DNA from: an uncultured virus (IMG/VR IMGVR_UViG_3300036766_001722)
Taxonomy: Duplodnaviria > Heunggongvirae > Uroviricota > Caudoviricetes
IMG/VR virus record: IMGVR_UViG_3300036766_001722
DNA length: 64,000 nt
Direction: 5' to 3' (one strand)
Of the stretch, positions 1-49,332 are shown piece by piece; positions within the stretch are counted from its first letter, which is position 1; each line of letters opens with the position of its first letter. The notes under the pieces are model-generated. The model worked only from the letters and a program-made list of their open reading frames with translations. It made no database searches and was not told the origin of the DNA. Both the position numbers and the translations under genes were made by a program.

Positions 1-689
1 ACCTTGATGCCGAGGCCTTCTGCGTCGATCGCATCTTGGAGACGCTGTCTCGCCTCGCCCTCGCTCAGCTCCCACAGTCGTTTCACCGAGGGCGCATTTC
101 TCCGTACGCGGCCGTTGACCGCGACAGAAGCGCTCGGGCGCTTGTGCTTCGCTCTCCGCTGCTTCTCGCGCTCGAGCTTCGCGGCATCGCCCTTCATCAA
201 GGTGTGCCGCCTCGCCAAGAGACTGGCGAGGTAGTCATCGGAGAGCGTGCGCACCGGCGGGATGTGATGTCCGACCTTGCGCAGTCGATGCTGGTGCCGC
301 AGCTTCTTCTTGTTCGCCCACACGACTTTCTCCGGGTTCACCGTGAACCAGAAGAGGCCGATCGCGATCACCGCGACGGCGCCCCAGCCGATCTTCAAGC
401 CGGTCGAGAGTCCCGAGTCCTGTACCGGCGGCGGGCTCAGCGACGCATCGGTCGTCGGTGGCGGCGTCTGGCCGAGCTGACCCGGCAGGCGAGCCGGGAA
501 GTTCGCACGCGGGAAGCCAGCTCCCGCGGTCTGGTAACGCATCGGGCGAGACCCGGTCGCCGTCGCGCCGAGGCCCGACATCGCGGCCTGCGTCACGTGC
601 GAGAGCACGGCACGGTGATGATCCTGCCGCGCACCCGCGTAGGGATCGGTCACGCGCGAAGACGTTCCGGGTTTGTTGTGATAGGTCAT
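1..689 (-). CDS. Putative virion membrane protein (MTY start, SGLGA/QLGQ, one TM, basic tail); runs off the left edge
   Basis: Not in the ORF track; translated by hand from ATG at 689: MTYHNKPG...AMSGLGAT...GQLGQTPPP...LKIGWGAVAVIAIGLFWFTV...VAVNGRVRRNAPS..., with no stop before position 1. Confidence 0.8.
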   Translation of the reverse strand, partial: MTYHNKPGTSSRVTDPYAGARQDHHRAVLSHVTQAAMSGLGATATGSRPMRYQTAGAGFPRANFPARLPGQLGQTPPPTTDASLSPPPVQDSGLSTGLKIGWGAVAVIAIGLFWFTVNPEKVVWANKKKLRHQHRLRKVGHHIPPVRTLSDDYLASLLARRHTLMKGDAAKLEREKQRRAKHKRPSASVAVNGRVRRNAPSVKRLWELSEGEARQRLQDAIDAEGLGIK

Positions 690-692
690 CGA

Positions 693-1460
693 TCACCGCC
701 TCGCCGAAGTGCTGCCCGCCACAGACTCATACTCGCGACCATTCCACACTTGGAGATTGCTCCGTGAAACAGGCCCATTCGTGCTGCGTTTCGCTTCCCG
801 CAGTGCGTCGTCGTCGTCGTTTGCACAGATTTCAATCCAGCCGTACGGACCACGATAGCGGTAGCTAACCCAGCCTGCGCTGCACGGGGCACGCAGGTCG
901 CGGATGAGAATGAAGCGATTCGTTCCGGATGCATCGAGACCGCGCGCCCTCGCAGCATCGTAGATGCGATCGATCTGCGCGGGCGTGTAACCCTCCGCGT
1001 CGATTGTTACCTCTCGTCTCCTAGCTTTCACTTGATCCAGAATTTGATCCAGCCTCGTCTCACGACGACGACGCGTGTTTTTCTCCGCCGTCGCCGCCTT
1101 CCCCATCATCCAGAAGATGGCGATCGTGCCCAGCACGATGGCGACGCCGCCGACCCTCGTGATCGTCTCGGGGCTCGCGCTCGGGATCGTGGTCTGCCCG
1201 ACGCCGCCGCCGTGTCCTGCGAACGTGACGCGACCATCGACGCCCACGGTCGCGACGAGCGGCCACGCTCCCGTCAGCCGATGCCCTCGACCATCATCCT
1301 GCGCCGTGATCTCGACGGGCGGCGGCTTCCGCGCCCGTCGCGCCGCTGCAATCGCCGGACGGATCCCTTTGACGAGCCACGGCGCGAAGAGCAGGATGCC
1401 CCTCTGGCTGAGGCTGAACGTGGCCCTGTTCAGGTCGATGTCGTGGCCGTTGACGATCAT
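693..1460 (-). CDS. Putative virion membrane protein (GGVGQ, TM, KNTRRRR, C-terminal modules)
   Basis: 255 aa; TM VGGVAIVLGTIAIFWMM; coupled to neighbours. Confidence 0.8.
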   Translation of the reverse strand: MIVNGHDIDLNRATFSLSQRGILLFAPWLVKGIRPAIAAARRARKPPPVEITAQDDGRGHRLTGAWPLVATVGVDGRVTFAGHGGGVGQTTIPSASPETITRVGGVAIVLGTIAIFWMMGKAATAEKNTRRRRETRLDQILDQVKARRREVTIDAEGYTPAQIDRIYDAARARGLDASGTNRFILIRDLRAPCSAGWVSYRYRGPYGWIEICANDDDDALREAKRSTNGPVSRSNLQVWNGREYESVAGSTSARR

Positions 1461-2941
1461 CAGAGCTGCCTCAGGGACTGCGGCACCACGGCGTAGACCC
1501 CGCCGCGTTCATCTTCCAGCACGGTGTGCTTCTGCCCGTCGATGGAGCGTGAGCCGATCTCCTTCGCGAGAACCGTGACCATCGACTCCACCCAGTCGTC
1601 GCTCGGGGCCGTACGCCACCGGCCTTTCGGTCCCGTGTACTCGAAGGCGTAGCCCTCGATCTCGTGCCATGGATCGCGCCCGTTCCACGCGAGCTGCCGA
1701 GCGCTGACGCTCGACCCGCGACCGTGACGCTCGTACTTCCACGTCTGGCGGTTGAACTTGGCGACGTAGCACCCAGCGATTCGCGCCGGGATGCCGTCGA
1801 TCGTGGTGCGCACGATCGCGCGATCGGCTTCGGCCGCGCTCGGCCCCGTCCAGACGATGGTGTCGCTACCGCAGAGGACCGCGAACGGCTTCGGGATGGC
1901 GCGCGCCTTCTCGCCCTGGTTGCGACGCAGTGGCTTCAGACCGCTGCCACCAGCGCGGCGAACCGAGACCTTCCTGTCGCTGTAGTAGGGATGGCCCTTG
2001 TCGAAGTGAACGAGATACGCGTCATCGCCGTACGACGACGTTTCGACGACCGTGCCGGGAAACCCCCATGCGTCTGAAACGCGGTCTCCCGCGCCGAACG
2101 TACCCGGGTTGCGACGCGTCCGCTTGCGACCGTTGGTCGCCATCCGCCGTGTGCTTCGACGCGACAGCCACCACCAGAGACCACCGGCCAGCACGAGGCC
2201 GCCGCCCACTGCCGCGGCGATCGGCACTGCCGTCGCCAGCGTACGGTCCGCCGAAAACACCGACTCGTTGCTCGGCGCGTCCGGCGGCAGGTCCCCCGGC
2301 AGCGTGTTCTTCGCCAGCTCCGGCGCGCTCGCCGGGATGCCCTCGCCCGTTGGGTAGACGTAGAGGTCAGACATCGGCCACACGCGGTGCACGCGGTAGC
2401 GCACCATCACGATCCGTGCGCCTGACGTGAGCCCCTCCGCCGCCGCCTTGAAGAGACGCGACGCGATGTTCGCGTAGTCGACCGCGTTGTACTGCTTGTC
2501 CGGCTTCCAGACGACGTAGATCTTTCCTGCGTCGCCACCGGCGGCCGTTCCCCACTTCGCAGTCGCGACGTTGGCCCCCGTGCTCTCTAGCACCTGCTTC
2601 ACCGCCGCGGGAACCCGCACTGCTGCCGCCGGATCGATGCCGTGCGGAACGAGTGCCGCATCGAGATACCAGTCGGTGCCCGACGGGCCGACCATGTACG
2701 CACGGACGGCATCCGTGTTCATGGTGGGAATCGCGTCACCGATGCCACGCTGAGCGACGATCGGATTCGCCGGAATGACCCACACCTTGTAACCGTCGAT
2801 CGTGTGAGGCACGCGTGGCGCCACCGCGCGCACGTTACTCGTCGTGCCGACGATGATGCGCCCACCTTCGGGGTGTACGGACACGATGCCGTGCTTGCCG
2901 AGCACCTTCCGCGACAGCTTGTCGATGGTCTTGTCGATCAC
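1460..2941 (-). CDS. Putative virion membrane protein with Asn-delimited C-terminal modules
   Basis: GTG start at 2941 overlaps the upstream TGA; RGIGD motif; TM AVPIAAAVGGGLVLAGGLWWWL; then MATNG, RRNPG, RRNQG and AWNG junctions. Confidence 0.8.
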   Translation of the reverse strand: MIDKTIDKLSRKVLGKHGIVSVHPEGGRIIVGTTSNVRAVAPRVPHTIDGYKVWVIPANPIVAQRGIGDAIPTMNTDAVRAYMVGPSGTDWYLDAALVPHGIDPAAAVRVPAAVKQVLESTGANVATAKWGTAAGGDAGKIYVVWKPDKQYNAVDYANIASRLFKAAAEGLTSGARIVMVRYRVHRVWPMSDLYVYPTGEGIPASAPELAKNTLPGDLPPDAPSNESVFSADRTLATAVPIAAAVGGGLVLAGGLWWWLSRRSTRRMATNGRKRTRRNPGTFGAGDRVSDAWGFPGTVVETSSYGDDAYLVHFDKGHPYYSDRKVSVRRAGGSGLKPLRRNQGEKARAIPKPFAVLCGSDTIVWTGPSAAEADRAIVRTTIDGIPARIAGCYVAKFNRQTWKYERHGRGSSVSARQLAWNGRDPWHEIEGYAFEYTGPKGRWRTAPSDDWVESMVTVLAKEIGSRSIDGQKHTVLEDERGGVYAVVPQSLRQL

Positions 2942-3825
2942 GGCGCAGCCTTTCCAGCTCCCGTGAGCTTTCGGATCGCGGCCTTGCCCCAAGGCGTGAA
3001 CTTGAAGAAGAGGAAGAGACCGGCCGCGCTCCCGCCGATGATCGCCGTGTAGCGGATCGCGTCGCCGATGCCGCCGCCGACGACGTTCGTGAAGTTCGAC
3101 GCCGCCGCGTCGAACGGACCGAGCGCGAGATCATGCTGAAGTTGCGCGCGCTGCGCCGCGCTGCACGGAGGCGTCGCCGTACGGCAAATCGCCTCCGCTT
3201 GCTGCGACGCGTACTCGAGCCGCTTGCTGCTGTCGAGCCAGTAGCTGATCGCGGTGATCGCTGCGGCGCCCAAGAGAACGGCCACGACCACCGCCGCGAT
3301 GATCACCACGGTCTCGACCTGCCCAAGGCCGTGCGTGCCCGACGGCATGCTCGTGAGCGGCGTCATGTTCCGGAGCACCTCGGAGGCCGAGTTGAACATC
3401 GTGCGGGCCGGAAGAACCAGCGCCGACTGCGCCGCCTGGTTCGCGTCGCGTTCCGCGGCGGTATTCACGGTGAGCGTCGCGAGCTGCTTCGCGCGAACGA
3501 CAGCATCGGCGACCTGTCCGATGGTGCCGCCAACGAACTGCTTCAGCTCGTCCCGCGAGAGCGTCGTGAGGTTGCCGCCCTGCGTCTGGATCTTCTGCCG
3601 GAGGAGATCGAAGGCCGGCTTCGAGAACGGGGACTGCCCTCCGAACGTCGCGATGGCGCGCTGCGTGAGCGACTTGAGATCCGTGGAGAGATCCGCGATC
3701 CCGTTCACCGGCCCGGCCGGCCCAGGCGTCGTCGCCTGGCCGAGACCGGCCACGGGCGCACCCGTGCACGCACAGCCAAGCGGCTGCGTCCGACGACGAT
3801 GAGCGAGTGCGGACGTGTAGCTCAC
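2938..3825 (-). CDS. Putative virion membrane protein (MSY start, two GLGQ motifs, two hydrophobic helices)
   Basis: GTGA overlap at 3822-3825 gives MSYTSALAH...; AGLGQ and HGLGQ; hydrophobic VVIIAAVVVAVLLGAAAI and IIGGSAAGLFLFF. Confidence 0.8.
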   Translation of the reverse strand: MSYTSALAHRRRTQPLGCACTGAPVAGLGQATTPGPAGPVNGIADLSTDLKSLTQRAIATFGGQSPFSKPAFDLLRQKIQTQGGNLTTLSRDELKQFVGGTIGQVADAVVRAKQLATLTVNTAAERDANQAAQSALVLPARTMFNSASEVLRNMTPLTSMPSGTHGLGQVETVVIIAAVVVAVLLGAAAITAISYWLDSSKRLEYASQQAEAICRTATPPCSAAQRAQLQHDLALGPFDAAASNFTNVVGGGIGDAIRYTAIIGGSAAGLFLFFKFTPWGKAAIRKLTGAGKAAP

Positions 3826-4793
3826 GCAGCACGTCTCCTGCTTCGACGCACGCGGCGGCGGTTCGAGCGCATCGGTGCGCCGAAGTACTCCTTCTCCTCG
3901 CCGGTCTGCGTGTCGATGACAGAGATGCCCTCGTCGCGCTTGTCGGCGAGGCGTTGCGCCTCGGTGGCCCATCCGGCGTCGAGCCTCTTGAGCACCTTGC
4001 CGCTCTCCGTGCGCAGCTCGTACCGTCCGCTGCCAGGGCCAAAGAAGTTGGCCTTGAGAGCATGCGTCGCGCTACGCAAGATGCGCTCTTCCTCAGCGTT
4101 GAGCCTATGTGCTTCACATGCCTGCGCGACGGCCTGCTCTCGCGAAACGCCAGTGCGATGAGTCGAGCTACGTTCGGCGTGGTGAACATCTGCGAGCGCA
4201 CGCTTGATCTTCGCGCCGTCTACTCCGTTGCGACGCAGGCGACGACGGTTCGCCTTCACCGCTGCCGGCGATGCCGCGGCGGCCGGCTTCTTCGAGAGGT
4301 AGACCGCTCCGCCGATGAGCGCGAGAACCCCAACGCCGATCGCCGCGTACATCTTGTAGTCCGGCGTGCCGGGCGGCGACGTCGAGGCCGCTGCCTGATC
4401 GGCTGCCGCCTGATCCAGCACGGCCTGATCGCCAGGCCCCACCAGCGTGGGGTCGACCGCCGCAGGCGGCGTCACCGAGGCCGGCGAAGTCGAGCCAGAC
4501 GGCGACGCCGTCGCCACCGCGGCGTCGATCGCATTCAGTGCTGCGGTCGTCACGGTGTAGTGGTACGTCGAGCCGACGAGCGCGGTCCTCACCGTCTCGC
4601 CCGTGTACCCGACGCTGCGCGCGGCTGCGCCGAGCGCGTTGATCGTCTGCGGGCCGAAGAAGCCGTCGACGCCCGACGCGGGAAGAAACCCGAGCGCGGA
4701 GAGCTTCGCCTGAAGCGTCCGAACGGCGGCGCTCCGCGTATTCGTCACGACGCTCGTCACCGCCGGAAGCGTGCCTAGTCCGTAGTAGCTCAC
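3822..4793 (-). CDS. Peptidoglycan-binding (PGBD-like) membrane protein with basic, Asn-delimited tail
   Basis: GTGA overlap gives MSYYGLGT; VRTLQAKLSALGFLPASGVDGFFGPQTINAL fits the PG_binding_1 pattern; TM YAAIGVGVLALIGGAVYL; KANRRR, RRNG, KANF, RSNRRR. Confidence 0.8.
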   Translation of the reverse strand: MSYYGLGTLPAVTSVVTNTRSAAVRTLQAKLSALGFLPASGVDGFFGPQTINALGAAARSVGYTGETVRTALVGSTYHYTVTTAALNAIDAAVATASPSGSTSPASVTPPAAVDPTLVGPGDQAVLDQAAADQAAASTSPPGTPDYKMYAAIGVGVLALIGGAVYLSKKPAAAASPAAVKANRRRLRRNGVDGAKIKRALADVHHAERSSTHRTGVSREQAVAQACEAHRLNAEEERILRSATHALKANFFGPGSGRYELRTESGKVLKRLDAGWATEAQRLADKRDEGISVIDTQTGEEKEYFGAPMRSNRRRVRRSRRRAA

Positions 4794-4933
4794 TTCTTCC
4801 TCCGATTCCGACGAGGGCCCTTGCCCTTCTTGAGGTAGTTCGCGATCAGCATCCCCGTTCCCACGAACGGGAAGGCGATCAGCAACATGTACCCAGCCAT
4901 GAGCGGCGCGGGCAGTACGTCGAGGACAATCAC
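4790..4933 (-). CDS. Small membrane protein (47 aa, TM plus RRNRRKK)
   Basis: GTGA overlaps at both ends; MIVLDVLPAPLMAGYMLLIAFPFVGTGMLIANYLKKGKGPRRNRRKK. Confidence 0.65.
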   Translation of the reverse strand: MIVLDVLPAPLMAGYMLLIAFPFVGTGMLIANYLKKGKGPRRNRRKK

Positions 4934-6282
4934 CGACCACCCCGCGTGTTGCGCAGGTACCCCGGGCGCACGCCCGCGCGGCGAGCTGCCTTGCGTGCGA
5001 TGCTGTACGCGATCGCCGAAGCCTGCTCCGGCGACTTCCCGGCGCGACGCTCGATGCCGATGATCTTGCCCATCGTCTTGCGCGAGTAGCCGTGGGGGAT
5101 GGGGTTCTTCTGCGTCCGTCCACTGTACTTGCGCTTGCCGCCGCTGCTTCCGGACCAGTACTCGTTGCCGCGGCCGTCGATCACCAAGGCCGTGGTGACG
5201 CCCTTGTCGAGCCACATCTCCGCAGCGCCGACCGCATCGTCGAGCGCGTCCTTCTCCGTGTGGAACTCGTCCGAGTCCTCGAACACGAGATCATCATCAC
5301 GGAAGCCGGACAGCGTCTCGATCCACGACAGACCGGCCGGGTGACGCATCACGTGGATGACCATGTCGTCGAAGTTGGTCGCGTTGCGCCGAACGCGGCG
5401 CCCGTTCCGCACCGTCAGCTTCTGGCGCGGCTTCTTCTTGAGCATGAAGTACGCACCAGCCGCGACGAGCACACCGCCGCCGATGAGGAACGGCGCAATC
5501 GTGCCCCAGTCCGGTCCCCCGCCAGGCGTCGTCACGATCGTGCCGTCGGGCAGCACAGTCTGCGTGCCGCCGCCGCTAGCGTTCGGCGCCGACTGCAGCG
5601 CCTCCCACGTACCGGAGGAGAACGCGATCGAGTGCTTGTCGGAGGACACCGTGTACGTCGTGACCTGGCCGCCCAGGACGACGTATCGTCCGATTGCCGA
5701 GAGTGCGAGCCTGAGCGCGTTCGCGGTCGCCGTGCCGAACGTGTTGTCCGCGCCGCCCGCGAGTGTGTAGCCCTTGCGGAGGAGTAGCGACTGGACGTCC
5801 GACGTCGGAACCGACTGCCCGACAGTGCCTCCCGAGGTCCGTCCCGCGGGCGCCGTCCCCGACGGCGCCGACGTGGGCGTCCCAGGAGGCGCCGTGGTCG
5901 GCGCGGCGCCCGACGGCGCCGACTCGCCGGGCAGGAGCAACTTCGCGTCCGAGGCAACGCTGCGCTCGGCTGCGCGGATCGCAGTCGTCAGCGCCGCGCG
6001 GCGCTGCGTGGCGGTCCAGCCCGTCGCCGGGAGAAACACCACGAAGAGGTGTCCCATGTCCGACCATCCCGAGCGCACGTAGCCCGCCGGGAACCCAGCC
6101 GCCTGCATCGCGTTCACGATGGTGTTCGGCACGTACTGGGCCTGGACCGGCGTGATGTTGTACGGCGTCAGCGACGTCATGTACTCGCCTGCCGTGGCGC
6201 CGGTGCCGGCCTGATCGATCGCGCCGAGGCCATGACGACCAAAGAGACGACGGATGGGATGGGTGGTCGAGTAGTAGGTCAT
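4930..6282 (-). CDS. Putative virion membrane protein (MTYY, HGLGA, PGBD-like domain, TM, Asn-delimited modules)
   Basis: 450 aa; DVQSLLLRKGYTLAGGADNTFGTATANALR is PGBD-like; TM IAPFLIGGGVLVAAGAYFML; VRNG, RRNA, QKNP, LRNT. Confidence 0.8.
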   Translation of the reverse strand: MTYYSTTHPIRRLFGRHGLGAIDQAGTGATAGEYMTSLTPYNITPVQAQYVPNTIVNAMQAAGFPAGYVRSGWSDMGHLFVVFLPATGWTATQRRAALTTAIRAAERSVASDAKLLLPGESAPSGAAPTTAPPGTPTSAPSGTAPAGRTSGGTVGQSVPTSDVQSLLLRKGYTLAGGADNTFGTATANALRLALSAIGRYVVLGGQVTTYTVSSDKHSIAFSSGTWEALQSAPNASGGGTQTVLPDGTIVTTPGGGPDWGTIAPFLIGGGVLVAAGAYFMLKKKPRQKLTVRNGRRVRRNATNFDDMVIHVMRHPAGLSWIETLSGFRDDDLVFEDSDEFHTEKDALDDAVGAAEMWLDKGVTTALVIDGRGNEYWSGSSGGKRKYSGRTQKNPIPHGYSRKTMGKIIGIERRAGKSPEQASAIAYSIARKAARRAGVRPGYLRNTRGGR

Positions 6283-6288
6283 CGCTCC

Positions 6289-7005
6289 TCAGATCGTCTG
6301 ACCGTCCTCGCGAAGGAGGTCGATGTACTGCTCCCAGGCCTTGCCGCGCTTACCGCCAGCGGGGTAGCAGCCGAGCGAGCCGTCTTCGTGCTTGCTGATC
6401 GTCAGGCCCTCGCGCGCGGCCATCTTCTGGAGATCCTTGTCGACGTCGAGCTTCACCGAAGCGCAGCACACGGTCACGAGCGGCGAGATGTGCTTCACAC
6501 GCCCCTTCTTCGCCTCCTCCGCGTCGTCCCACACCTTGACGCCCTTGATGCCCTTGCGGGAGAAGTGCGTCTCGATCTTCTTCGCGATGTTGCCGCGGCC
6601 CGGCGACCAGTCGCCGACCTCGGGCAGGGCAGTGGCGGCCCCGTTCGTGTGACCGTTCGGGCCGTGATCGTCATCCTCGCCATCGTTCTTCTTGATGGGC
6701 TTCTTTGCGAGGAACCACCACGCGGCGCCGCCGCCGCCGACCACGGTGACGAGCCCGAGCGCCCACACGGGCACGCCGAGCACCTTCTTGGTGAAGAAGT
6801 TCTCGGACGGAGGCGCGGTGTTCTGGCCGAGCGGGATCATCTGAAGCGGAGGCACCGGGGGCAGCGCCAGCTCCTGGCGCTGCTCCGATGTCGCGAGCTG
6901 GTAGCGCTCGCGCGGCACCCCGGCGGGCATCCTCAGCTCCTCGCCCGGGGCGCCGAACATCTCGTCCAGCTCCTGGTCGTCGTACGTGTTCTGTTCGAAG
7001 GTCAT
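6289..7005 (-). CDS. Putative virion membrane protein (PLGQ, TM, KKN, soluble C-terminal domain)
   Basis: 238 aa; TM VPVWALGLVTVVGGGGAAWWFL; GAGGAG upstream. Confidence 0.8.
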   Translation of the reverse strand: MTFEQNTYDDQELDEMFGAPGEELRMPAGVPRERYQLATSEQRQELALPPVPPLQMIPLGQNTAPPSENFFTKKVLGVPVWALGLVTVVGGGGAAWWFLAKKPIKKNDGEDDDHGPNGHTNGAATALPEVGDWSPGRGNIAKKIETHFSRKGIKGVKVWDDAEEAKKGRVKHISPLVTVCCASVKLDVDKDLQKMAAREGLTISKHEDGSLGCYPAGGKRGKAWEQYIDLLREDGQTI

Positions 7006-7045
7006 CTCTCGTAGTCTCCTCTTGGCGCCCCGGTGTCAGCCGCAT

Positions 7046-7714
7046 CTAGTAGATGCGGATCGTCTCTTTCGGCAGCCTCGCATGCCGCCGTGCTGCGTGC
7101 CTGTGCCCGCGGCTGTGCTTCATCGCAGCTCCGCTGTGCCGCTTCGCCGAAGCTCCGGCGGGAACGGAGACCGCCCTGGTCTTGGCCTCCGGCACGGTGA
7201 GCGGGTACTTCCGCTTCGACATGTACACGACCGCTGCGATGCCGATGAGTCCGCCTCCGACGAGCAGCACGGGCATCCACGGGAACGTGCTGCCGCTCGC
7301 CGCCGCGGCGCCCGGTGGCGGTACCGTGCTGTCGGCCGTTGCGGGCGTGATCAGCCCACCGCCGTCGGACGGCGGCGTGCCGACGATCGTCTGCACCTGC
7401 TGCAGCGCCGGTGGCGGCGCGTTCTGGATCAGGTTCATCAGGTCGTCGGGCACGGTGATCGTCGTGCCGGCAACCGAGTAGGGAGGCGCCGTATACCCGA
7501 CGTATTGCGCCGCGGCGCGCATCGCGCTCTCGGTACGTACGCCCCACTTGCCATCCACACCGGTCGGGCCGGCTCCGGCCGCGAGGAAGCCGAGACGCTG
7601 GAGCTGCGTCTGGATGATCCGAACGCCGTCGTCTCCCGTGACGGTGTTCACCGCCGCGGTAGAACCGACGCCGCCGTACCCGGCGAACTCGCCGCCCTTG
7701 CGTACGTAACTCAC
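7046..7714 (-). CDS. Peptidoglycan-binding (PGBD-like) membrane protein
   Basis: GTGA overlap gives MSYVRKGGEFAGYGGVGS; VRIIQTQLQRLGFL...VDGKWGVRTESAMR; TM WMPVLLVGGGLIGIAAVVYM; basic tail. Confidence 0.8.
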   Translation of the reverse strand: MSYVRKGGEFAGYGGVGSTAAVNTVTGDDGVRIIQTQLQRLGFLAAGAGPTGVDGKWGVRTESAMRAAAQYVGYTAPPYSVAGTTITVPDDLMNLIQNAPPPALQQVQTIVGTPPSDGGGLITPATADSTVPPPGAAAASGSTFPWMPVLLVGGGLIGIAAVVYMSKRKYPLTVPEAKTRAVSVPAGASAKRHSGAAMKHSRGHRHAARRHARLPKETIRIY

Positions 7715-8403
7715 GCAGCTCTCCGATAGCGGCGACGACGGTTCGCCGCCACCGCTGCTGCGGGTGCTGCGGCCGGAGCCGCTGCCTTCTTCTTCCCGCC
7801 GCTCAGCGCGAGGAAGCCGAGAAGTCCGACGACGCCGACTGCGCCGACCCCGATGACCCACATAGGGATGCCGCTCACGGTCGACGTGATGCCGGTCGTG
7901 ACCGGCGGTGTCGTGCTGCCGTCTGCCGTGGGAGTGACCGGCGGCGTTGCTCCCGGCGTAGCGTCCGGCGTCGTCGCGGCGGGCGGCAGCTTGATGTCGG
8001 ACGAGTCCACGAACGTGATCGGATTGATGAGCGAACCCTTGCCGCCGGGACGCAGGCCGTCTTCGTTGTAGTCCGAGGTGGCGTCGAAGAACGCGCCCTT
8101 GACCTTTCCGGCCGTCGAGGTCGTGTTCGGTACGATGACCTCGAGATGGATGAGACCGTCTGAACCCCACCCGTTGCCGGGAATGTTGACCGTCCATCCA
8201 GGCAGCCGTGCCCGAATCTTCTGCTTGAGGTAGGGAGGGATCTGCGCCGAGACGGTGCCCACCGTTCCCGACGGCTGCCACGTACCTTCGATCGTCACGT
8301 ACTGCTTGAGAACGCGCGGATCGTTGCGCGGCATCTGCCCCGCGCCCGGGTTCCAAACTGCGTCTGCCGGCCAGTCGCCGACTCCGTGGAGATGGTAGCT
8401 CAT
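7711..8403 (-). CDS. Putative virion membrane protein (MSYHLHGVGD, TM, ANRRRR)
   Basis: 230 aa; Pro/Thr linker; TM IPMWVIGVGAVGVVGLLGFLAL. Confidence 0.8.
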   Translation of the reverse strand: MSYHLHGVGDWPADAVWNPGAGQMPRNDPRVLKQYVTIEGTWQPSGTVGTVSAQIPPYLKQKIRARLPGWTVNIPGNGWGSDGLIHLEVIVPNTTSTAGKVKGAFFDATSDYNEDGLRPGGKGSLINPITFVDSSDIKLPPAATTPDATPGATPPVTPTADGSTTPPVTTGITSTVSGIPMWVIGVGAVGVVGLLGFLALSGGKKKAAAPAAAPAAAVAANRRRRYRRAA

Positions 8404-8421
8404 GGTGATCCGATCCTTTGG

Positions 8422-8988
8422 TCAGGTTGCCGGCCCGCGGAAGTGGCTGAGGAACGCTCGCACCTTCGCGAGCTTCTTCGTGCGCAGCAGCGTGTCCGAC
8501 GACCCCATCGCGAAGTAGTCGGCGTGCTTGGCGGAGATCTTGTACGTCGTGTGGTCGCCAGGGTTGTAGCGGTCGAGGTAGAGACCCTGATGGCGAGCAG
8601 TCTTCTGCAACGACAGGAACGAGTTTCCCGTGTTGCGACGCATGCGACGGCGACGGTTCATGTGCACCGGCGCTGCGCTGCTCGTGACCTTCGACACCGT
8701 GTAGAGATAGACAGCGAGCGAGAGCGCCGACAGGCCGAGGCCGACCTTCGCGAGCGCCTCCATGCGCGCCCCGCGCGCCTCCGCGTCGCTCACCACCGTG
8801 CCGCTTGGCGTCGTCGCCTGACCGAGATAACCGAGGTGACGGTTGCCCAGCACCGGAGGCTCGGTCTGGAAGATGACCGGAGACACGTAGCCGCGATGCC
8901 GCTGCGGCTGACCGTAGTCGGCGAACACCCACGGGTTTACGACGCCCCAGGGCTTGTAGCCGAGCCTTCTGTCGACCGTGTAGCTCAC
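8422..8988 (-). CDS. Putative virion membrane protein (MSYT, YLGQ, TM, MNRRRRMRRNT, C-terminal module)
   Basis: GTGA overlap at 8985-8988; TM VGLGLSALSLAVYLYTV. Confidence 0.75.
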   Translation of the reverse strand: MSYTVDRRLGYKPWGVVNPWVFADYGQPQRHRGYVSPVIFQTEPPVLGNRHLGYLGQATTPSGTVVSDAEARGARMEALAKVGLGLSALSLAVYLYTVSKVTSSAAPVHMNRRRRMRRNTGNSFLSLQKTARHQGLYLDRYNPGDHTTYKISAKHADYFAMGSSDTLLRTKKLAKVRAFLSHFRGPAT

Positions 8989-9266
8989 TTGGCCGATTCC
9001 TCTTGCCAGTTCTTCTTCATCTTCGCCTTGAGGCCCGGCAGCAGCTTGCCGAACACGAGATAGCCGAGGCCGAAACCGACCGCGACACCCACCGGCAGAA
9101 CGACCATCGGCGCGCGGTACCACTGCACCGGTGGCGGCTCCTGCCCGAGCGGCGGCACGCCGTAGAGCGGGTACGGCGCCATACCGGGCTGCGAACCGGC
9201 CACGCCCGATGCCTGAGCGGCTGCCTGCTCGAAGGCCTGGTCGGGCGCGTAATGAGACTGAGGCAT
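8985..9266 (-). CDS. Small putative virion membrane protein (PLGQ, TM, KKN)
   Basis: ATG 9266 preceded by AGGAAAGGA; TM VVLPVGVAVGFGLGYLVF. Confidence 0.75.
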   Translation of the reverse strand: MPQSHYAPDQAFEQAAAQASGVAGSQPGMAPYPLYGVPPLGQEPPPVQWYRAPMVVLPVGVAVGFGLGYLVFGKLLPGLKAKMKKNWQEESAK

Positions 9267-9285
9267 GACGATCCTTTCCTGACGA

Positions 9286-9642
9286 TCAGAAGTAGTTGCC
9301 GCCGACCATGCGCAGACGCTTCGCCGCCGAGCCCCATCCACCGAACGGCGGAAGCGTGCCGAGCCCCGACAACGTCTCGCGCATCGTCGTCACCGCATGC
9401 TGGCTCGGCGACGCCATACGCTGAGATGCGCTACGGGTCGCCACCATCTTCGGGCGCGCCGCGTCTTGCGCCATCATCTGCGCCACCGTCATCGAAGCCG
9501 CCTGGCTCGGCGGCCGAATCGCGGACGCGACACGAAGCCGCGCGAACCGATTCGCGGGATGCGCGTGACGCACGAGATGATGGAGCGCCGCCGCCGCGAC
9601 ATGCGGTGCTGCGCCGACTCCGTTATGTGCGTGATAGCTCAT
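9286..9642 (-). CDS. Small basic protein (MSYH, NGVGA, SGLGT, ends VGGNYF)
   Basis: TGATG overlap at 9640-9644; shares the family motifs but has no TM. Confidence 0.7.
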   Translation of the reverse strand: MSYHAHNGVGAAPHVAAAALHHLVRHAHPANRFARLRVASAIRPPSQAASMTVAQMMAQDAARPKMVATRSASQRMASPSQHAVTTMRETLSGLGTLPPFGGWGSAAKRLRMVGGNYF

Positions 9643-10127
9643 CAGAATTCGCTGACACAGCGGCCGTAATGCCGGTTGAAATGACTGCCGGGCGGGCACC
9701 CGTGGGAGTAATACTCCCGCGTGGCTGCGCTGTAGGGTTTTACGCGGGGGTCTACGCCGGGGTCTACCGCCGCGCGTCGCGTCCCCACCGGGAAGTAGTT
9801 ACCGCCGATGCCTGCGGCGCCGCCAGGCATCGGTGTCGGGCCACTGGGCGGCGACACCGTTACGCGAGCCGGAGCGGCCCGGCCACTGGCGACCAGTCCG
9901 TCGATCGCCCCGAGCACGTCGGCGACCTGTTCGACGCTCATGCCGGACATGAACAGCAGGTCGAGCCGACCCCCTCTGAGGACTCGATTCGCCGTCATCA
10001 TCGCGCCGGACGCGGCGATGCGTCCCGCAGGAGGCAGTACTCCAGCGCCTCCGCGTGCAGCCCAGTCACGCATCTGCATGTAGCGCCTGTAGGCCAGGTA
10101 CTTGATCGGGGTGTCCATCGACGGCAT
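9642..10127 (-). CDS. Hypothetical protein (GIGGNYF motif, C-terminal CPPG..C)
   Basis: TAATG overlap at 10125-10129 gives MPSMDTPIKYLAY... Confidence 0.7.
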   Translation of the reverse strand: MPSMDTPIKYLAYRRYMQMRDWAARGGAGVLPPAGRIAASGAMMTANRVLRGGRLDLLFMSGMSVEQVADVLGAIDGLVASGRAAPARVTVSPPSGPTPMPGGAAGIGGNYFPVGTRRAAVDPGVDPRVKPYSAATREYYSHGCPPGSHFNRHYGRCVSEF

Positions 10128-11533
10128 TACAGACCCACCTTCCTCGCGAACTTCTTCGCGTTCTTCTTGAGTGACTTCCGATTGCGCCAGAGCAGGAACG
10201 CTCCGAGGCCGACACCGCCAGCGATGAGCATGTTCTTGCCGGTGAACACTCCGTTTGCCGGGATCATGGCAGCGGGGACCGGCGCCGACGCGGTATCCTG
10301 CGCGACCTGTCCCATGCCCTGGACCGCGGTCGGCGATGCCTTGAGCGCGCTGATCTCCGTCGTGAGCGCGGCCTGGCTTGCCGCCACCGGCGCCACGATC
10401 TTCGTCGCCAGCTCCGTCACCGGCGTCTGCGGGGCCGCCGCCGCGAGGTTGCTGATCCGCCGGAGGCCTCCCTTGCCGCCGCGTCTCTGACGCGAGACGA
10501 GGTCGTCCATCGTCGCGTGCATCACGCAGTGAGCCATGACGTGGGCGATCGCCTTCTCGGGCGGATAGCCCATCGCGATCAGCTTCTGCGCCACGCGGCT
10601 GCACTTCTTCGACAAGCCCGGTCCGAGCGAGTCCATCGCGCGAGCGAGGAACTGGTCGCGCCACTGACGCTGCATCCCCTTGCTCTCCTTCACAAGAGCG
10701 TTGGCGATGTTCCACCCGAACGACTCGATCTTCGAGTTGCTCGGGGGCGGACGATACGCGTCGACGCGTGCCGAGAGCGCGACGCCGCCCGCGGACGGCT
10801 GCGTGACGCGCCATTCGTCCGCGGTCGTGTCCCACATCTCCGACTGCTGCACGCCCAGCTCGGCCTCGTCGGCGATGTACGCCGGGAGCGCGAACTGATG
10901 AGCGAAGATGCCGTCCTGGTTGCGCCAGGTGACGCCTTCCTCCTCGTCGTAGATGCCGTTGCCGATGACGTTCTGCGACGAGTCGTCGTACTCGTAGCTG
11001 TCACGGTCATAGACCGTGAGAGGATCGACGCCACGGTTCGACGTCTGCTGGTTCATCTGGGGGTTGCGCATCGGCCACGGCACCGGGGCCGTCACCTCCG
11101 GCTCGTAGAGCATCGTGTCCGTGGGCACCGACTTCACGGTGGTGGACTGGTCGCTGCCGAGGTTGACGTCGGTCTGCTGCTGAGAGAACGAACGATAGCC
11201 CTGGCCGCTGCCGGGCCCCCACGGGCTAGAACCGAAGTCGGTCTGCTCCATCCCTTCGCCGTCCTGCACAGCGAGGAGATCGAGCTGCGACATGTCGATG
11301 TCGGTAGCGGGGCCGGCTCCGTCGCCGGGACGCGACGGGGTGTCCTCCTGGATCTCGTCGTCAAGGATCGAAGAGCGACCCGGACCCTGGTAGTCCTCCA
11401 CGTCGAGGTTCGCGTTGCCACGCATCGTCGGGATGGCCATCGAGCCATCGCCGTCGAACAGCGTCGCCAGATCGGCGTCGTCCATCGAGGTATCCGTGTC
11501 CATGTCATCTCTTGCCATGTTGCGCCCCATCAC
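10127..11533 (-). CDS. Putative virion protein: acidic N-terminus, shared helical domain, GMGQ, C-terminal TM, KKN
   Basis: 468 aa; TM MLIAGGVGLGAFLLW followed by RNRKSLKKNAKK. Confidence 0.8.
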   Translation of the reverse strand: MMGRNMARDDMDTDTSMDDADLATLFDGDGSMAIPTMRGNANLDVEDYQGPGRSSILDDEIQEDTPSRPGDGAGPATDIDMSQLDLLAVQDGEGMEQTDFGSSPWGPGSGQGYRSFSQQQTDVNLGSDQSTTVKSVPTDTMLYEPEVTAPVPWPMRNPQMNQQTSNRGVDPLTVYDRDSYEYDDSSQNVIGNGIYDEEEGVTWRNQDGIFAHQFALPAYIADEAELGVQQSEMWDTTADEWRVTQPSAGGVALSARVDAYRPPPSNSKIESFGWNIANALVKESKGMQRQWRDQFLARAMDSLGPGLSKKCSRVAQKLIAMGYPPEKAIAHVMAHCVMHATMDDLVSRQRRGGKGGLRRISNLAAAAPQTPVTELATKIVAPVAASQAALTTEISALKASPTAVQGMGQVAQDTASAPVPAAMIPANGVFTGKNMLIAGGVGLGAFLLWRNRKSLKKNAKKFARKVGL

Positions 11534-12198
11534 GCGGTCGCCTTCGGCCGCTTCTTGATCGCCAAGTATCCCACGGCCAGGATCCCCGCGAGCACCGCAA
11601 ACGACACGCCGTACGTCACGAGCGGGCTCGCCGGTGGTGCCGAGGTTGCCGTCGTGTCAGGAGTCGGCGTCGTAGGCGGCGGCGTGAGCTGAGAACACTG
11701 TGCCACGCCCTGAGCAGCCGCGAATCCCGTCGTCGTCGCGCTGTGCGCGTCGGAGCCCTGCGTCTGGCCGACGAGGTCAGACACCGCGCTCGAGAGCGGC
11801 GTCGAGCAGATGAGCCCCTGGAACGACCTCGCTACGGCGTCCGCCGTGGCATCGCCGAGTCCCACCCCACCGAGGCCGCTGTTCGGCGACCACGCGATCG
11901 GACGCCCGTACTGCGCTGCGCGACCGATCTTCTGGATCTTGCGGATCGACGCATCGGCCAGCGACCGAGCGAGAGCTTCGTGGACCGCCGCGCTCGTCGT
12001 CATACCGCGTGCTCGAAGCGTGTCGGAGACCTTGGCCACCGTCGTGGGCAGCGCAGGATCGACCGCGCGCAAAGCTGAGCTGAGACGCTGCATCCGAACC
12101 GCTTCCGGCTGCCGACGCGTGGCCGCGAGGATCTCCGTCGCGGCGGCACGGTGGTGCGCCAGAATCGGGTCGCTATGCCTGCTGGTGGAACGGTTCAT
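11530..12198 (-). CDS. Putative virion membrane protein (shared helical domain, SGLGGVGLGD, C-terminal TM)
   Basis: 222 aa; TM LVTYGVSFAVLAGILAVGYLAI then KKRPK. Confidence 0.8.
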   Translation of the reverse strand: MNRSTSRHSDPILAHHRAAATEILAATRRQPEAVRMQRLSSALRAVDPALPTTVAKVSDTLRARGMTTSAAVHEALARSLADASIRKIQKIGRAAQYGRPIAWSPNSGLGGVGLGDATADAVARSFQGLICSTPLSSAVSDLVGQTQGSDAHSATTTGFAAAQGVAQCSQLTPPPTTPTPDTTATSAPPASPLVTYGVSFAVLAGILAVGYLAIKKRPKATA

Positions 12199-12201
12199 GT
12201 C

Positions 12202-12954
12202 TCAGATCTTCTTCACGACGACCACTCCGACGATCCCGAGCAGCAGCACGCCGCCGCCGATCATTGCGAGCTTGATCATCGTGCCCTGCTTGGCCGTGCC
12301 GGCGGCGATCGCGGCCTGCTGCGTCTGCGCGTTCGCCTGGGCAGCGGCAAGGTTCGCCGCGGTCTGCTGGTTCTGCGCGTCGATCTGCGCTTGCGTGTTC
12401 GCAGCCGCGTGCGCGCCGCAGAACGTGTTCGCTGCCGTGTTGATCGACCCTGTGGCGTCCGTCGTGGTCGTCTTCGTGGCCGCTCCGACGAGGCTGGTGA
12501 GCGCGCTGAGGCCGGCCATGACGCCGCACGAGATGTCCGTGCCGGTGTAGTCCGGCGCCGCCGCCTGACCGAGAGCAGAACCACCGACGGCGGCGACCAT
12601 CGCACGGATCTGCTCGATCGCCTTGTCGGCCAGCACGTTCGCGACCACGAGGCGCAGCGCGTTGAACGTGACCTGTGTGCCGCGAGCGCCGCTGGCGGCT
12701 AGCAGGCGGTACTGGTCGTTGAAGCGCTGCGCGAGACCGGACTGGATCTTGTTCGCCTCCGCACGGATGATGCGGAGCTGCCCCGCGGCCGATGTCGCAG
12801 TGCTCGCCTTGCGGATGATCTGCGACGCCATGAGGGACGCCGACGAGACCACGATGTCGCGACTCGCGAGCGAGCCGACCGAGACCGCCGTCGCGCCGAG
12901 ACCACCGACCGAAGTCTTCCGAGCGCCGAAGCGCGCCTTGGCCTTGTAGCTCAT
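12202..12954 (-). CDS. Putative virion membrane protein (MSYK, GGLGA, ALGQ, C-terminal TM)
   Basis: 250 aa; TM LAMIGGGVLLLGIVGVVVV then KK. Confidence 0.8.
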   Translation of the reverse strand: MSYKAKARFGARKTSVGGLGATAVSVGSLASRDIVVSSASLMASQIIRKASTATSAAGQLRIIRAEANKIQSGLAQRFNDQYRLLAASGARGTQVTFNALRLVVANVLADKAIEQIRAMVAAVGGSALGQAAAPDYTGTDISCGVMAGLSALTSLVGAATKTTTTDATGSINTAANTFCGAHAAANTQAQIDAQNQQTAANLAAAQANAQTQQAAIAAGTAKQGTMIKLAMIGGGVLLLGIVGVVVVKKI

Positions 12955-13307
12955 CGACGGCTCCTGCTGTAGGAACGCTTCCCGCGTCTCTTGTTCGACT
13001 TGATCGGCATCGGCTTGCCGAACCCCTGAGCGAATGCCACGGCAGGCGTTACGATTGGAAAGAGCCCGCCGAGCAGTCCCCAGCCGATGGCGGCGCCGAC
13101 CGACCCGTTGTGGCGACGGTACCCGTGAAACGCACTGAGTCCGACACTGGCCATGTCCAGCACGTAGAAAAGGATACGGAGTGGACCCGTCGACGGCCCC
13201 TGAACGACCTGAATCGTCGTCGGAGTCTGGACGGGCGCGGGCGGCGTCGCCTGGCCAAGGTGCTCGAAGCCGAGACCAGCGGTGCTGTAGTAGGGAGCGG
13301 CCATCAT
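12951..13307 (-). CDS. Small membrane protein (AGLGF, HLGQ, two hydrophobic helices, KSNKRR)
   Basis: ATGA overlap at 13304-13307 gives MMAAPYYSTAGLG... Confidence 0.75.
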   Translation of the reverse strand: MMAAPYYSTAGLGFEHLGQATPPAPVQTPTTIQVVQGPSTGPLRILFYVLDMASVGLSAFHGYRRHNGSVGAAIGWGLLGGLFPIVTPAVAFAQGFGKPMPIKSNKRRGKRSYSRSRR

Positions 13308-13897
13308 TCCACCTTGAAGATCTTGTAGACCTTCACGCGAGCGAGCATCGACGCCGTACGACGACCGGCGACAGGATCGAGAACCCACCACACCTTCGAC
13401 CGAGGATCTTGCGCGCGAGCGAACACATGCGTGTACACCGGCGGCTGCCCCCACATCGGCGTCTCGAACCCCACCGTGATGAAGTCGACCGGCGCGCCGA
13501 TCGTGAGACAGCTCGCGCCAATGGCAGTCGAGTACCCATCGCAGTCAAGAAGCAGGGAGCCACGAGCCGCGTCATCGAGCATCCGGTCGGTCGTCCCGAG
13601 CATCTCGACGTGCACCGGGTCACGCGTGTAGCGGCCTGCGTTACCCCACCACTTACCGATCGCGACGACCTCCGACGTGTAGTCCTTGGGACGCACGTTG
13701 TTGATGATCTGCTCGGCGTGACGACGCACGCGGATCGAGCGCTCGCCGTCGAGCGCCGTCCCGACCATCTGGATCGGGTTCCGCTGACGACGCGCGAGCT
13801 GAATCATCACCGCCACGGTGTGATCGACGCCGCGATACGGCTCGACGGAGCCGGTCGCCTGCGTGTAGCTCGGGGCGTAGCGCTGCTGGCGGAGCAT
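13304..13897 (-). CDS. Transglutaminase-like cysteine protease, candidate virion maturation protease
   Basis: Cys-His-Asp order typical of the transglutaminase-like fold: LDCDGYS, YTHVFA, WVLDPV, plus RYTRDP upstream. Start at 13897 (GGAGG upstream) or 13942. Confidence 0.75.
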   Translation of the reverse strand: MLRQQRYAPSYTQATGSVEPYRGVDHTVAVMIQLARRQRNPIQMVGTALDGERSIRVRRHAEQIINNVRPKDYTSEVVAIGKWWGNAGRYTRDPVHVEMLGTTDRMLDDAARGSLLLDCDGYSTAIGASCLTIGAPVDFITVGFETPMWGQPPVYTHVFARAQDPRSKVWWVLDPVAGRRTASMLARVKVYKIFKVE

Positions 13898-13967
13898 GTC
13901 TTTCGACCGCTCCTCCAAGCGCCCGACGAGAGCATCGCACACGGATACCTACACGTGCAAGGGCTCG

Positions 13968-15239: not shown

Positions 15240-15549
15240 GCCGCTGGCGACGGACGAGCGCTCGGCCGTGCCGTGCGTAGATGCGCGGGGTGCCCCGACG
15301 CTCCTGTGCCGGACGGGCATCCGCAAACAGCTCGTACCGTACTCCCACGACGCGCTGCGCGGCCGTGCTGACGATCATGACGACGCGCTCGCCCTCTTTC
15401 ACGCCCAGCGCCAAGAGAGGGGCTGACGGCACCGCGTACGCGGTGCCATCGTGGAAGCGCACAGACGCCCGCGACCCTCGATATCCGAGCACGGTCACCG
15501 GGCGTCTCTGCTCGACGACTGGCGCAGGCGTGGCGACATAGCTACCCAC
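15232..15549 (-). CDS. Hypothetical protein
   Basis: 105 aa, collinear with the operon. Confidence 0.55.
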   Translation of the reverse strand: MGSYVATPAPVVEQRRPVTVLGYRGSRASVRFHDGTAYAVPSAPLLALGVKEGERVVMIVSTAAQRVVGVRYELFADARPAQERRGTPRIYARHGRALVRRQRPV

Positions 15550-15563
15550 GGCCGCAGCGTACC

Positions 15564-47501: not shown

Positions 47502-47503
47502 GC

Positions 47504-48492: not shown

Positions 48493-48517
48493 GCTCGCAG
48501 CGTCGCCGCTCGCGTCG

Positions 48518-49276: not shown

Positions 49277-49332
49277 GGGCCCACGTTAGGCAGCGAACGA
49301 TCCCCGCGCAAGGAGAAAGTGTCGTGATATGG

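Follow-up and report, generated by a model that had tools for sequence, protein, structure and literature searches.

What do the recurrent motifs of asparagine (Asn) and arginine (Arg) behind the membrane anchors of a viral gene cluster delimit, and why are they kept? The question is raised by the IMG/VR virus record IMGVR_UViG_3300036766_001722, of which a stretch of 64 kb (64,000 nucleotides, 62-69% GC, hereafter the window) was analysed; the stretch is part of a 164,952-base contig, and the element has about 66% GC. On the minus strand, where all cluster features described below are located, a run of genes from 3 to about 13300 specifies membrane proteins of the single-pass or tail-anchored kind. 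The original prediction, which concerned positions 693-8988, held that Asn-centred basic linkers are a discrete signal bounding exchangeable passenger modules, and the cassette events found in relatives bear this out. The motif appears to bound such modules, and this cassette architecture is well supported; cleavage at the motif, its location and delivery into the host are what we infer from the sequence pattern.

The typical protein of the run starts with M-[S/T]-Y-[Y/H/T/V] and G-L-G, continues through an ectodomain and a Pro/Thr/Ala-rich stretch, and has one hydrophobic helix followed by a basic segment. Behind this anchor stand one to four cassettes of about 55-95 residues, each ending in its own [V/L/I/M]-x-x-Asn (phi-x-x-N). 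All the motifs quoted previously were found in the translations, each behind a hydrophobic segment, together with the Asn-ended short tails AANRRRR, KSNKRR and KKNAKK; among the membrane proteins inside 693-8988, 7 of 9 carry the Asn motif after the anchor. The consensus is phi-x-x-N followed by an arginine run; where the protein continues, the run holds one hydrophobic residue and a second Asn, in the form N-RRR-phi-RR-N, examples of such closed linkers being N-RRR-L-RR-N, N-G-RR-V-RR-N and N-RRRR-M-RR-N. Because the arginine run contains one hydrophobic residue, the closing Asn also has V, L or M at position -3. The linker had been described as a basic stretch ending in Asn: the closing Asn is present, but an opening Asn is just as frequent. 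The residue following the closing Asn varies (P, A, N, W, F, R, I, Q, G, D, T or L). The tag recurs at 60-200 residues from the anchor, between cassettes, and is also the end of L005 7917-8165, a protein that has no hydrophobic segment; cassette ends lacking an arginine run still finish in phi-x-x-N, as in ALKAN↓FFG, LAWN↓GRD, LTTN↓SRQ and ISQN↓SSS, the arrow marking the junction.

The motif is specific to the cluster. In a six-frame translation of the entire 64 kb, the strict regular expression N[GRK][RK][RKV].{0,2}[RK][RK][NRS] gives 8 matches: 7 in the true frames of cluster genes and 1 out of frame, at 2526-2549; the window's remaining 51 kb has none. Asn stands directly before the basic run in 7/19 cases in the cluster and 16/41 in relatives, against 0/23 in 42 other window proteins (Asn frequency 2.4-2.7%). 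Behind the anchors, V, L, I or M occupies position -3 for 18/36 Asn (background 16.8%, p 4.6e-6), compared with 22/78 before the anchors (p 0.14) and 79/303 in the other window genes (p 0.04). When 58 cluster proteins and homologs are considered, orthologs included, the same position is hydrophobic for 33/40 run-opening and 24/31 run-closing Asn, on a background of 20%. Basic C-terminal tails end 27 of 52 cluster proteins, again counting orthologs; 20 of these 27 tails are opened by Asn, with phi at -3 in 17 of the 20. The Arg codons vary between copies of the motif and only AAC is constant; therefore the motif is kept at the protein level and not at the DNA level, and a DNA-level repeat is ruled out. 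Full-text word searches of one literature library found no description of the motif.

Relatives were recovered as five loci (L001-L005) and 11 proteins. Protein searches gave P0002-P0004 for the product of 4930-6282, P0006-P0009 for that of 1460-2941 and P0016 for that of 3822-4793; a metagenome scan gave L001 and L002, which represent one syntenic relative of about 56% identity, and a genome-collection scan gave L003-L005, at 43-47% identity and all with about 67.5% GC. Gene order, a Cys-His-Asp protein discussed below (a C-terminal fragment in L005) and the Asn/Arg tails are common to these loci. Among homologs, similarity runs through the anchor to the Asn and then stops.

This pattern is found in the 450-residue membrane protein of 4930..6282 (P0001), which has an MTYY...HGLG start, a transmembrane helix at about 5443-5499, a linker and two cassettes, with the motifs VRNG, RRNA, QKNP and LRNT. 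Its linker, N-GRRVRR-N preceded by LTVR (5383..5406), has V291, R292 and N293 invariant in 4/4 homologs. As far as ...TVRN, four homologs share 56-85% identity; beyond it their middle parts are of four kinds, since the middle cassette (5104..5382, 93 residues) differs in each of P0002, P0003 and P0004/L001; three of them resume identity at (K/R)N↓P(I/V)PHGY, and the last cassette (PIPHGYSRKTMGKIIG..., 4933..5103, 57 residues) is kept in P0002 and P0003.

In the 493-residue membrane protein of 1460..2941 (P0005), the ectodomain and the transmembrane helix (about 2183-2239) are followed by a linker and three cassettes; the motifs are MATNG, RRNPG, RRNQG and AWNG. The N-terminal 278 residues are conserved in P0006-P0009, and the cassettes diverge after RRN. 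The linker N-GRKRTRR-N (2108..2134) is the point where the homology with P0006 stops, exactly after the closing Asn. Cassette 1 (1919..2107, 63 residues, ending in LRRN) is replaced in P0006 after RRN↓, identity is back at (L/V)RRN, and cassette 2 (1682..1918, 79 residues, ending in LAWN) is kept; P0007 is without cassettes 1 and 2 and reads RRNP↓TLDGYAFEYTG, with cassette 3 present (1463..1681 in the window, 73 residues, GYAFEYTG...IDG...YA fold). P0008 and P0009 differ only in the third cassette, between SISQN↓ and (K/R)N↓PSKPGKHG. In the L001 homolog, Asn splits the protein into units of 66, 66, 66 and 65 residues.

The 323-residue membrane protein of 3822..4793 (P0015; MSYYGLG start, PG_binding_1 domain, transmembrane helix at about 4296-4352) carries behind the helix a linker, two cassettes and an Arg tail, with the motifs KANRR, RRNG, KANF and RSNRR. 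After the linker N-RRRLRR-N (4227..4250), a 60-residue GVDG...ALKAN cassette (4047..4226) is missing from the ortholog P0016, which reads RRN↓FFGAGSG. The second cassette, FFGPGSGRYEL...FGAPMRSN (3861..4046, 62 residues), has a counterpart of 58-63% identity on a different anchor, in L001 9318-10076, whose N-terminus resembles that of window 3-689 and whose cassettes are different from those of the latter. A single cassette (8425..8631, 69 residues) ends the 188-residue membrane protein of 8422..8988 (VSYT start, transmembrane helix at about 8695-8745, linker N-RRRRMRR-N at 8632..8658, motifs MNRR and RRNT) in the window copy only, its orthologs in L001, L003 and L004 ending at the Arg tail without a cassette. 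Conversely, the window's 8985-9266 protein ends where its ortholog L005 3587-4075 goes on, after SPN, into a cassette, and L001 5508-7013 contains a tandem pair of cassettes, 59% identical, with VRN[H/R]RRSRR before each copy.

In ungapped alignments the ends of high-scoring segment pairs give four left breakpoints, TVRN↓ (P0002/P0003), RRN↓ (P0005/P0006), RRNP↓ (P0005/P0007) and SISQN↓ (P0008/P0009), which fall at the Asn or one residue after it; right breakpoints are LKAN↓FF and MRRN↓FF, QKN↓PIP and KRN↓PVP, and TAKN↓PSK and TTRN↓PSK. The swapping at Asn that had been anticipated is thus found among relatives as insertion, deletion, duplication and replacement, and on these alignments the cassettes behave as independent units that are inserted, deleted, tandem-duplicated, replaced and moved between anchors, with breakpoints at Asn. 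Further shared cassettes were not found when those of relatives were compared by tblastn with the window and all loci. Module size had been put at roughly 40-80 residues; the modules are indeed small, but those bounded by the motif at both ends measure 57-93 residues, and two single modules reach 127 (693-1460) and 131 residues (6289-7005).

The occurrence of modules elsewhere as stand-alone proteins, for which the original prediction proposed to look, is supported by cassette 3 in soluble proteins and by three matches to PHROG families. A HMMER search with the three cassettes of 1460-2941 returned matches for cassette 3 only. In P0011 (135 residues) it follows the two-helix anchor of the 12951-13307 family and the junction SMSRN↓AGRRARR; P0010, P0013 and P0014 are small soluble proteins with cassette 3 at the N-terminus, and P0012, a multi-domain protein of 1386 residues, has it at residues 597-658. 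Altogether, one cassette is found on three different anchors. Three of 23 isolated cassettes match PHROGs families whose members are small free-standing phage proteins: phrog_2423 for the C-terminal cassette of 4930-6282 (E 1.8e-9, 52-position profile), phrog_16160 for one L001 cassette (E 2.7e-7) and phrog_2089 for another (E 9e-19), the latter being HicA-like (Pfam HicA_toxin at E 9.5e-4, below cut-off). The other 20 gave nothing significant in PHROGs, none of the 23 reached the Pfam cut-off, and cassette 1 of 1460-2941 gave weak Tudor/SH3-like hints only (E 0.02-0.04, below cut-offs). Hidden Markov model scans matched no peptidase family in the tagged proteins or in the 23 cassettes. The 57-residue cassette of 4930-6282 showed no relation to the DUF5661 part of 57098-58936; likewise, a head-protease or scaffold domain at the start of P0012 has no support, Pfam and PHROGs being empty on P0010-P0014. 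In P0012 the string ASLA (or ASLS/ASLG) recurs between segments, possibly another boundary grammar in a different virus.

An AlphaFold2 (AF2) model of P0005, built from 9 sequences and poor overall (mean predicted local distance difference test, pLDDT, 45.7), is confident for cassette 3 (pLDDT 63-89) and of intermediate quality over most of cassette 2 (59-74). The junction residues N341 and N420 are in the low-confidence segments 262-347 and 408-423, which flank cassettes 2 and 3. In the model, therefore, the junction Asn would fit linkers next to folded modules in 2/2 cases that could be judged, in agreement with the expectation that they lie outside folded domains. VIA-align of the same model aligned the ectodomain only, at residues 88-194, with a generic ferredoxin-like fold (Z up to 8.2).

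Since the non-prime side of phi-x-x-N is fixed and its prime side free, as in short protease sites, the motif can be read as a protease site, and the proteins as membrane-anchored polyproteins cut after Asn; we put this tentative reading a little short of an even chance. Asn would be at P1 and the hydrophobic residue at P4, with such a site at the C-terminus of every cassette. Through its arginine runs, the C-terminal part would be kept in contact with nucleic acid or acidic lipid at one face of the membrane; cutting behind each Asn would then trim the tails and free small passenger domains, possibly with short Arg-rich peptides too, and it could occur in the virion interior, at the host membrane during entry or in the infected cell. 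The reader of the site may be a virus-encoded maturation protease, the candidate being a transglutaminase-like Cys-His-Asp protein of 212 residues (13304..13942), encoded at the head of the tagged gene run. Cys134, His172 and Asp189, in that order, are invariant in 4/4 homologs (61-68% identity), and the gene has the same head-of-cluster position in L002, L003 and L004. Its nearest Atlas clusters are Transglut_core (feature score 0.97) and partly Peptidase_C93, to be taken as a lead only. It can be proposed as a candidate processing enzyme, with a weak transglutaminase-like family assignment.

Several points weigh against cleavage by this enzyme at this site. The Transglut_core profile of Pfam is found in 1/4 members only, with E 0.013, below cut-off; comparison with PDB sequences gave no match, and the AF2 model, with pLDDT 41, is unusable. 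To our knowledge no transglutaminase-like or papain-like enzyme has Asn specificity. The anchored proteins 2938-3825 and 7046-7714 have no Asn motif, junction Asn preceded at -3 by T, Y, A or P exist (KRTRRN, RTQKN, PTPN), and half of the post-anchor Asn (18/36 fit) are outside the -3 rule. The inclusion of orthologs makes the p-values of the 52- and 58-protein counts overstate independence; several junctions were placed by eye on alignments, and gapped BLAST ends are fuzzy by up to about 8 residues. In the model of P0005, cassette 1 and the first linker have no confident fold, so that only 2 junctions are judgeable. Finally, Asn often caps helices, so that N-RRRxRR-N might simply form a basic helix, capped and left intact.

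The main rival explanation is a permanent Arg-rich tether with a capping Asn. The Arg runs would be spacers, capped by Asn at both ends, that bind nucleic acid or lipid and stay uncut, so that the passengers remain tied permanently to the membrane, close to DNA or RNA; Asn would be kept for helix capping or base contacts, and cassettes would swap at the linkers because these tolerate recombination. The linkers are extremely basic and stand directly behind the anchor, many members are just an anchor with an Arg tail (20/27 basic tails), the linker region is unstructured or of low confidence in AF2, and viral arginine-rich RNA-binding peptides containing Asn exist. Capping, however, would also take Ser, Thr or Asp, yet Asn is almost exclusive here, and neither the hydrophobic residue at -3 (33/40, 24/31) nor the phi-x-x-N at cassette ends without an arginine run is explained; we consider an uncut tether rather unlikely, with an appreciable chance of being right all the same. 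Cross-linking or deamidation and translocation are minor alternatives, partly compatible with the above. According to the former, the transglutaminase-like enzyme would either deamidate the Asn or join it covalently to another virion component, for instance through an isopeptide bond with a Lys, fixing the tagged proteins in place or switching the charge beside the Arg run. Weak evidence places the conserved enzyme in the transglutaminase-like superfamily, and Lys-Asn isopeptide bonds occur in a phage capsid and in pilins; transglutaminases are known to act on Gln and not on Asn, no partner Lys motif was seen, and a site at the end of every cassette, internal ones included, is left unexplained, which makes this covalent chemistry improbable.

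An equally small chance is given to the Arg run as a translocation signal of tailed-virus ejection proteins, which is compatible with cleavage: the helix would enter the host inner membrane, and the membrane potential would draw the polycation and the cassettes into the cytoplasm. A location in the periplasm at entry suits the PG_binding_1 domains (3822-4793, 7046-7714 and, weakly, 4930-6282), a final N-out/C-in orientation agrees with the positive-inside rule, signal peptides are absent from the N-terminal domains (100-260 residues), the cassettes are small (55-95 residues), and the nearest Atlas clusters of neighbouring proteins, leads only, come from tailed viruses. On the other hand, no tail or head genes were recognised in the 64 kb, and translocation alone leaves the Asn and the hydrophobic -3 unexplained. 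As for ordinary positive-inside flanks with Asn occurring by chance and no separate signal, basic residues after a transmembrane helix are universal, and 2938-3825 and 7046-7714 have basic flanks without the motif; nevertheless, Asn precedes basic runs in 7/19 cases here and 0/23 elsewhere in the window, the -3 rule holds, and the motif is found between cassettes far from the anchor, on an anchorless protein and, conserved, in relatives that are 43-47% identical. The regular-expression specificity, the basic-run counts and the -3 rule thus contradict chance or a positive-inside flank, which is highly improbable. Self-cleavage at Asn was also considered. In enzymes of the asparagine peptide lyase type, a folded context positions the Asn for cyclisation; here the flanking cassettes are mutually unrelated and the residue after Asn varies, which would argue against one shared autocatalytic fold.

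Processing at Asn, the preferred reading, may be compared with known systems. The T4 prohead protease cuts after Glu, in motifs of the (L/I)-x-E type. In adenovirus, basic DNA-associated peptides are freed in the particle from Arg-rich core protein precursors by the viral cysteine protease, whose site has a hydrophobic residue at P4 and is Gly-based. According to a published account, gp245, the prohead protease of SPN3US, has head and ejection proteins as substrates and recognises in them a short motif in which Val is favoured at P4, at sites that include E-124; in T4, propeptides target proteins into the prohead core (PMC10052503). In T4-like and giant phiKZ/SPN3US-like phages many unrelated virion and ejection proteins carry a short tag and motif read by one protease, as may the proteins described here, and the P4 preference of gp245 resembles the V/L/I/M at -3. 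The tags of those phages are N-terminal targeting peptides, their protease is a serine protease and the cleaved residue is Glu, whereas the tag described here stands behind the membrane anchor of its proteins, internally or at the C-terminus, and is built on Asn and an Arg run. Adenovirus and other polyprotein processing of large DNA viruses concerns eukaryotic viruses and Gly-based sites, without sequence relationship to the present proteins.

The polyvalent proteins of phages and conjugative elements, as described by Iyer et al. 2017 (PMC5512222), are multi-domain proteins whose domains are believed to enter with the DNA and to be parted by proteolysis. As in that description, each polypeptide here has several unrelated small domains, with a content varying between relatives, and the one to four unrelated cassettes behind an anchor agree with the 2-15 unrelated domains by which polyvalent proteins are defined, cassettes 2 and 3 of 1460-2941 being predicted to fold as separate units. 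However, polyvalent proteins usually have their own metallopeptidase domain and no membrane anchor, whereas here no such domain was found in cis by the scans described above and the proteins are anchored; moreover, the present units of 55-95 residues have a fixed boundary motif and arginine spacers, unlike polyvalent proteins. Viral arginine-rich RNA- or DNA-binding motifs also have short Arg runs and Asn at flexible, genome-facing termini, but neither a role in bounding exchangeable cassettes nor a hydrophobic -3 rule is known for them. With LPXTG, PEP-CTERM and MYXO-CTERM sorting signals, the short members share a C-terminal hydrophobic helix and an Arg/Lys cluster; the signature of those families precedes the helix, whereas the motif described here follows it and recurs between cassettes. 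NCBIfam matched 0/16 window proteins, and the sorting-signal families were rejected; among the relatives' proteins, 1/4 matched LPXTG_anchor, at positions 12-33 of 34, that is, the helix and tail without LPXTG.

Concerning the compartment, the modules had been placed on the inner face of a virion membrane. The large N-terminal domains have no signal peptide, the positive-inside rule would make the cassettes cytoplasmic, and the peptidoglycan-binding domains suggest a periplasmic position; ejection proteins of a tailed virus, which would need no virion membrane and would insert into that of the host at entry, would fit this at least as well as an internal virion membrane. A broader proposal is that of an unrecognised lineage of large bacterial viruses, in which a transglutaminase-like, Asn-specific protease would turn membrane-anchored cassette polyproteins into a changeable set of small effectors together with free Arg-rich peptides that condense or escort the genome; effector delivery would be plug-and-play, and the Arg run would double as a signal for moving the cassettes across or against a membrane. 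This we regard as doubtful, although conceivable. If processing at Asn is correct, the virus would have a compact, rule-based way to attach, exchange and release small passenger proteins, with one anchor, one four-residue boundary site and one arginine spacer serving many unrelated cargos; it would imply that a transglutaminase-like enzyme has a new protease specificity for Asn at P1, and it would provide about 25 small uncharacterised domains, including the HicA-like one and three orphan-phage-gene families, as well as a tagging grammar that is natural and portable. Even if nothing is cut, the boundary rule parses otherwise unannotatable proteins into units and tracks their shuffling between genomes.

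The remaining tagged proteins are simpler. The 230-residue membrane protein of 7711..8403 ends with VAAN-RRRRYRRAA (tail 7714-7743, the AANRRRR noted above), and its L001 ortholog with VVAN-RRRRHRRR. In the 238-residue membrane protein of 6289..7005, the transmembrane helix is followed by PIKKN (the motif KKND) and a 131-residue module with an acidic start (6292-6684); the L001 ortholog has LQDN in place of PIKKN. The 255-residue membrane protein of 693..1460, for which no homolog was found in the relatives, has its helix followed by AEKN-TRRRR (EKNT) and a 127-residue module (696-1076). At the window edge, which cuts its C-terminus, the membrane protein of 3..689 (MTYH start) has a transmembrane helix, VWAN-KKK, a 66-residue stretch and the linker VAVN-GRVRR-N (96-116; motifs VNG and RRNA), followed by the next module. 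Two further tagged proteins are outside 693-8988: a small two-helix membrane protein (12951..13307) ending in IKSN-KRRGKRSYSRSRR, the KSNKRR tail, and a conserved protein of 468 residues (10127..11533), used as the query for relatives, which ends in LWRN-RKSLKKN-AKKFARKVGL, with KKNAKK. The gene starts at 2941, 4793 and 8988 agree with the database proteins P0005 and P0015. The terminal tail of 3822-4793, N-RRRVRRSRRRAA (3825..3863), includes AGG AGA, the ribosome-binding site of the next gene, and a GTGA start/stop overlap. The junctions 3822-3825 and 7711-7714 are alike: at both, the Arg tail ...RRAA has its stop overlapping a GTG start as GTGA, and the tail Arg codons AGG/AGA are the Shine-Dalgarno sequence of the downstream gene.

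A second shared tag is N-terminal and consists of M/V-[S/T]-Y-[Y/H/T/V], G-L-G within 5-30 residues and often then Q-[A/T]-T; it is found at the minus-strand starts 689, 2941 region, 3825, 4793, 6282, 7714, 8403, 8988, 9642, 12954 and 13307, and in L002 3876-4787 it is doubled in tandem. The anchors can also be shared, as in the adjacent L001 genes 7028-7861 and 7858-9321, which have a near-identical anchor helix (62% over 32 residues, ...AALGIGYLWWKHR...); the former ends at this helix and the latter goes on into the Asn/Arg linker and cassettes. The interval 9342-10126 on the minus strand is a gap between conserved genes that are adjacent in L001, and holds an MSYH-starting open reading frame (9286-9642) that has neither a hydrophobic segment nor homologs in the relatives and is uncertain as a real gene.

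The minus strand from 19784 down to 3 is a single gene run with coding-type GC content at third codon positions. At its head there are several conserved proteins of unknown function, among them an 824-residue coiled-coil protein (16247-18721), and then the Cys-His-Asp protein, with about 16 membrane proteins downstream of its gene. No megablast relatives of 1-12000 were found among phages, tblastn of the 468-residue protein gave no match in phages or plasmids, the primase of the element has no phage match, its MoxR-like ATPase shares only 24-28% identity with phages, and IMG/VR scans with two proteins gave no relatives. Phages being only distant and the region of interest unmatched in phages, plasmids and IMG/VR, the source is treated as an uncultured large virus-like element. 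Capsid, portal, terminase and packaging ATPase were not recognised within the 64-kb window of the contig of about 165 kb, and Pfam and PHROGs scans of the cluster and its neighbours, with 64 kb of about 165 kb visible, gave no prohead protease family; the window has no transfer RNA genes. The contigs of L003-L005 are binned into metagenome-assembled genomes labelled Acidobacteriota, Nannocystaceae and Phycisphaeraceae, where they are probably viral contigs mis-binned by composition; with relatives in bins of three phyla, the group is therefore probably widespread and currently mis-binned. The 620-residue MAYH protein of L001 had no match in these three genomes.

From about 20.9 kb onward, plus-strand genes encode replication and nucleotide functions: an archaeo-eukaryotic (AEP) primase, an RNase T-like exonuclease and two DNA methylases, then NUDIX, deoxynucleoside monophosphate (dNMP) phosphatase, DUF3850 and dual-specificity phosphatase proteins, and the MoxR-like ATPase with its VWA partner. 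Many of the replication and nucleotide proteins match PHROGs. A plus-strand helicase (ResIII/Helicase_C, 36085-39258) is split, close to its N-terminus, by an intein with Hint and LAGLIDADG domains. A 612-residue multi-domain protein (57098-58936, plus strand), located in this early region, has a polyvalent-protein-like look and combines a weakly kinase-like N-terminus with DUF5661, strings rich in Cys and, at the C-terminus, the string HEFGH. Finally, a TnpB/IS605 OrfB gene (13994-15202, plus strand; OrfB_IS605, Cas12f1-like TNB and helix-turn-helix domains) has the Cys-His-Asp gene on one side and a conserved gene of 102 residues (15247-15552) on the other, and runs on the strand opposite to theirs; it is missing from the equivalent place in L002, L003 and L004, and another OrfB-like open reading frame is present at 47276-49327.

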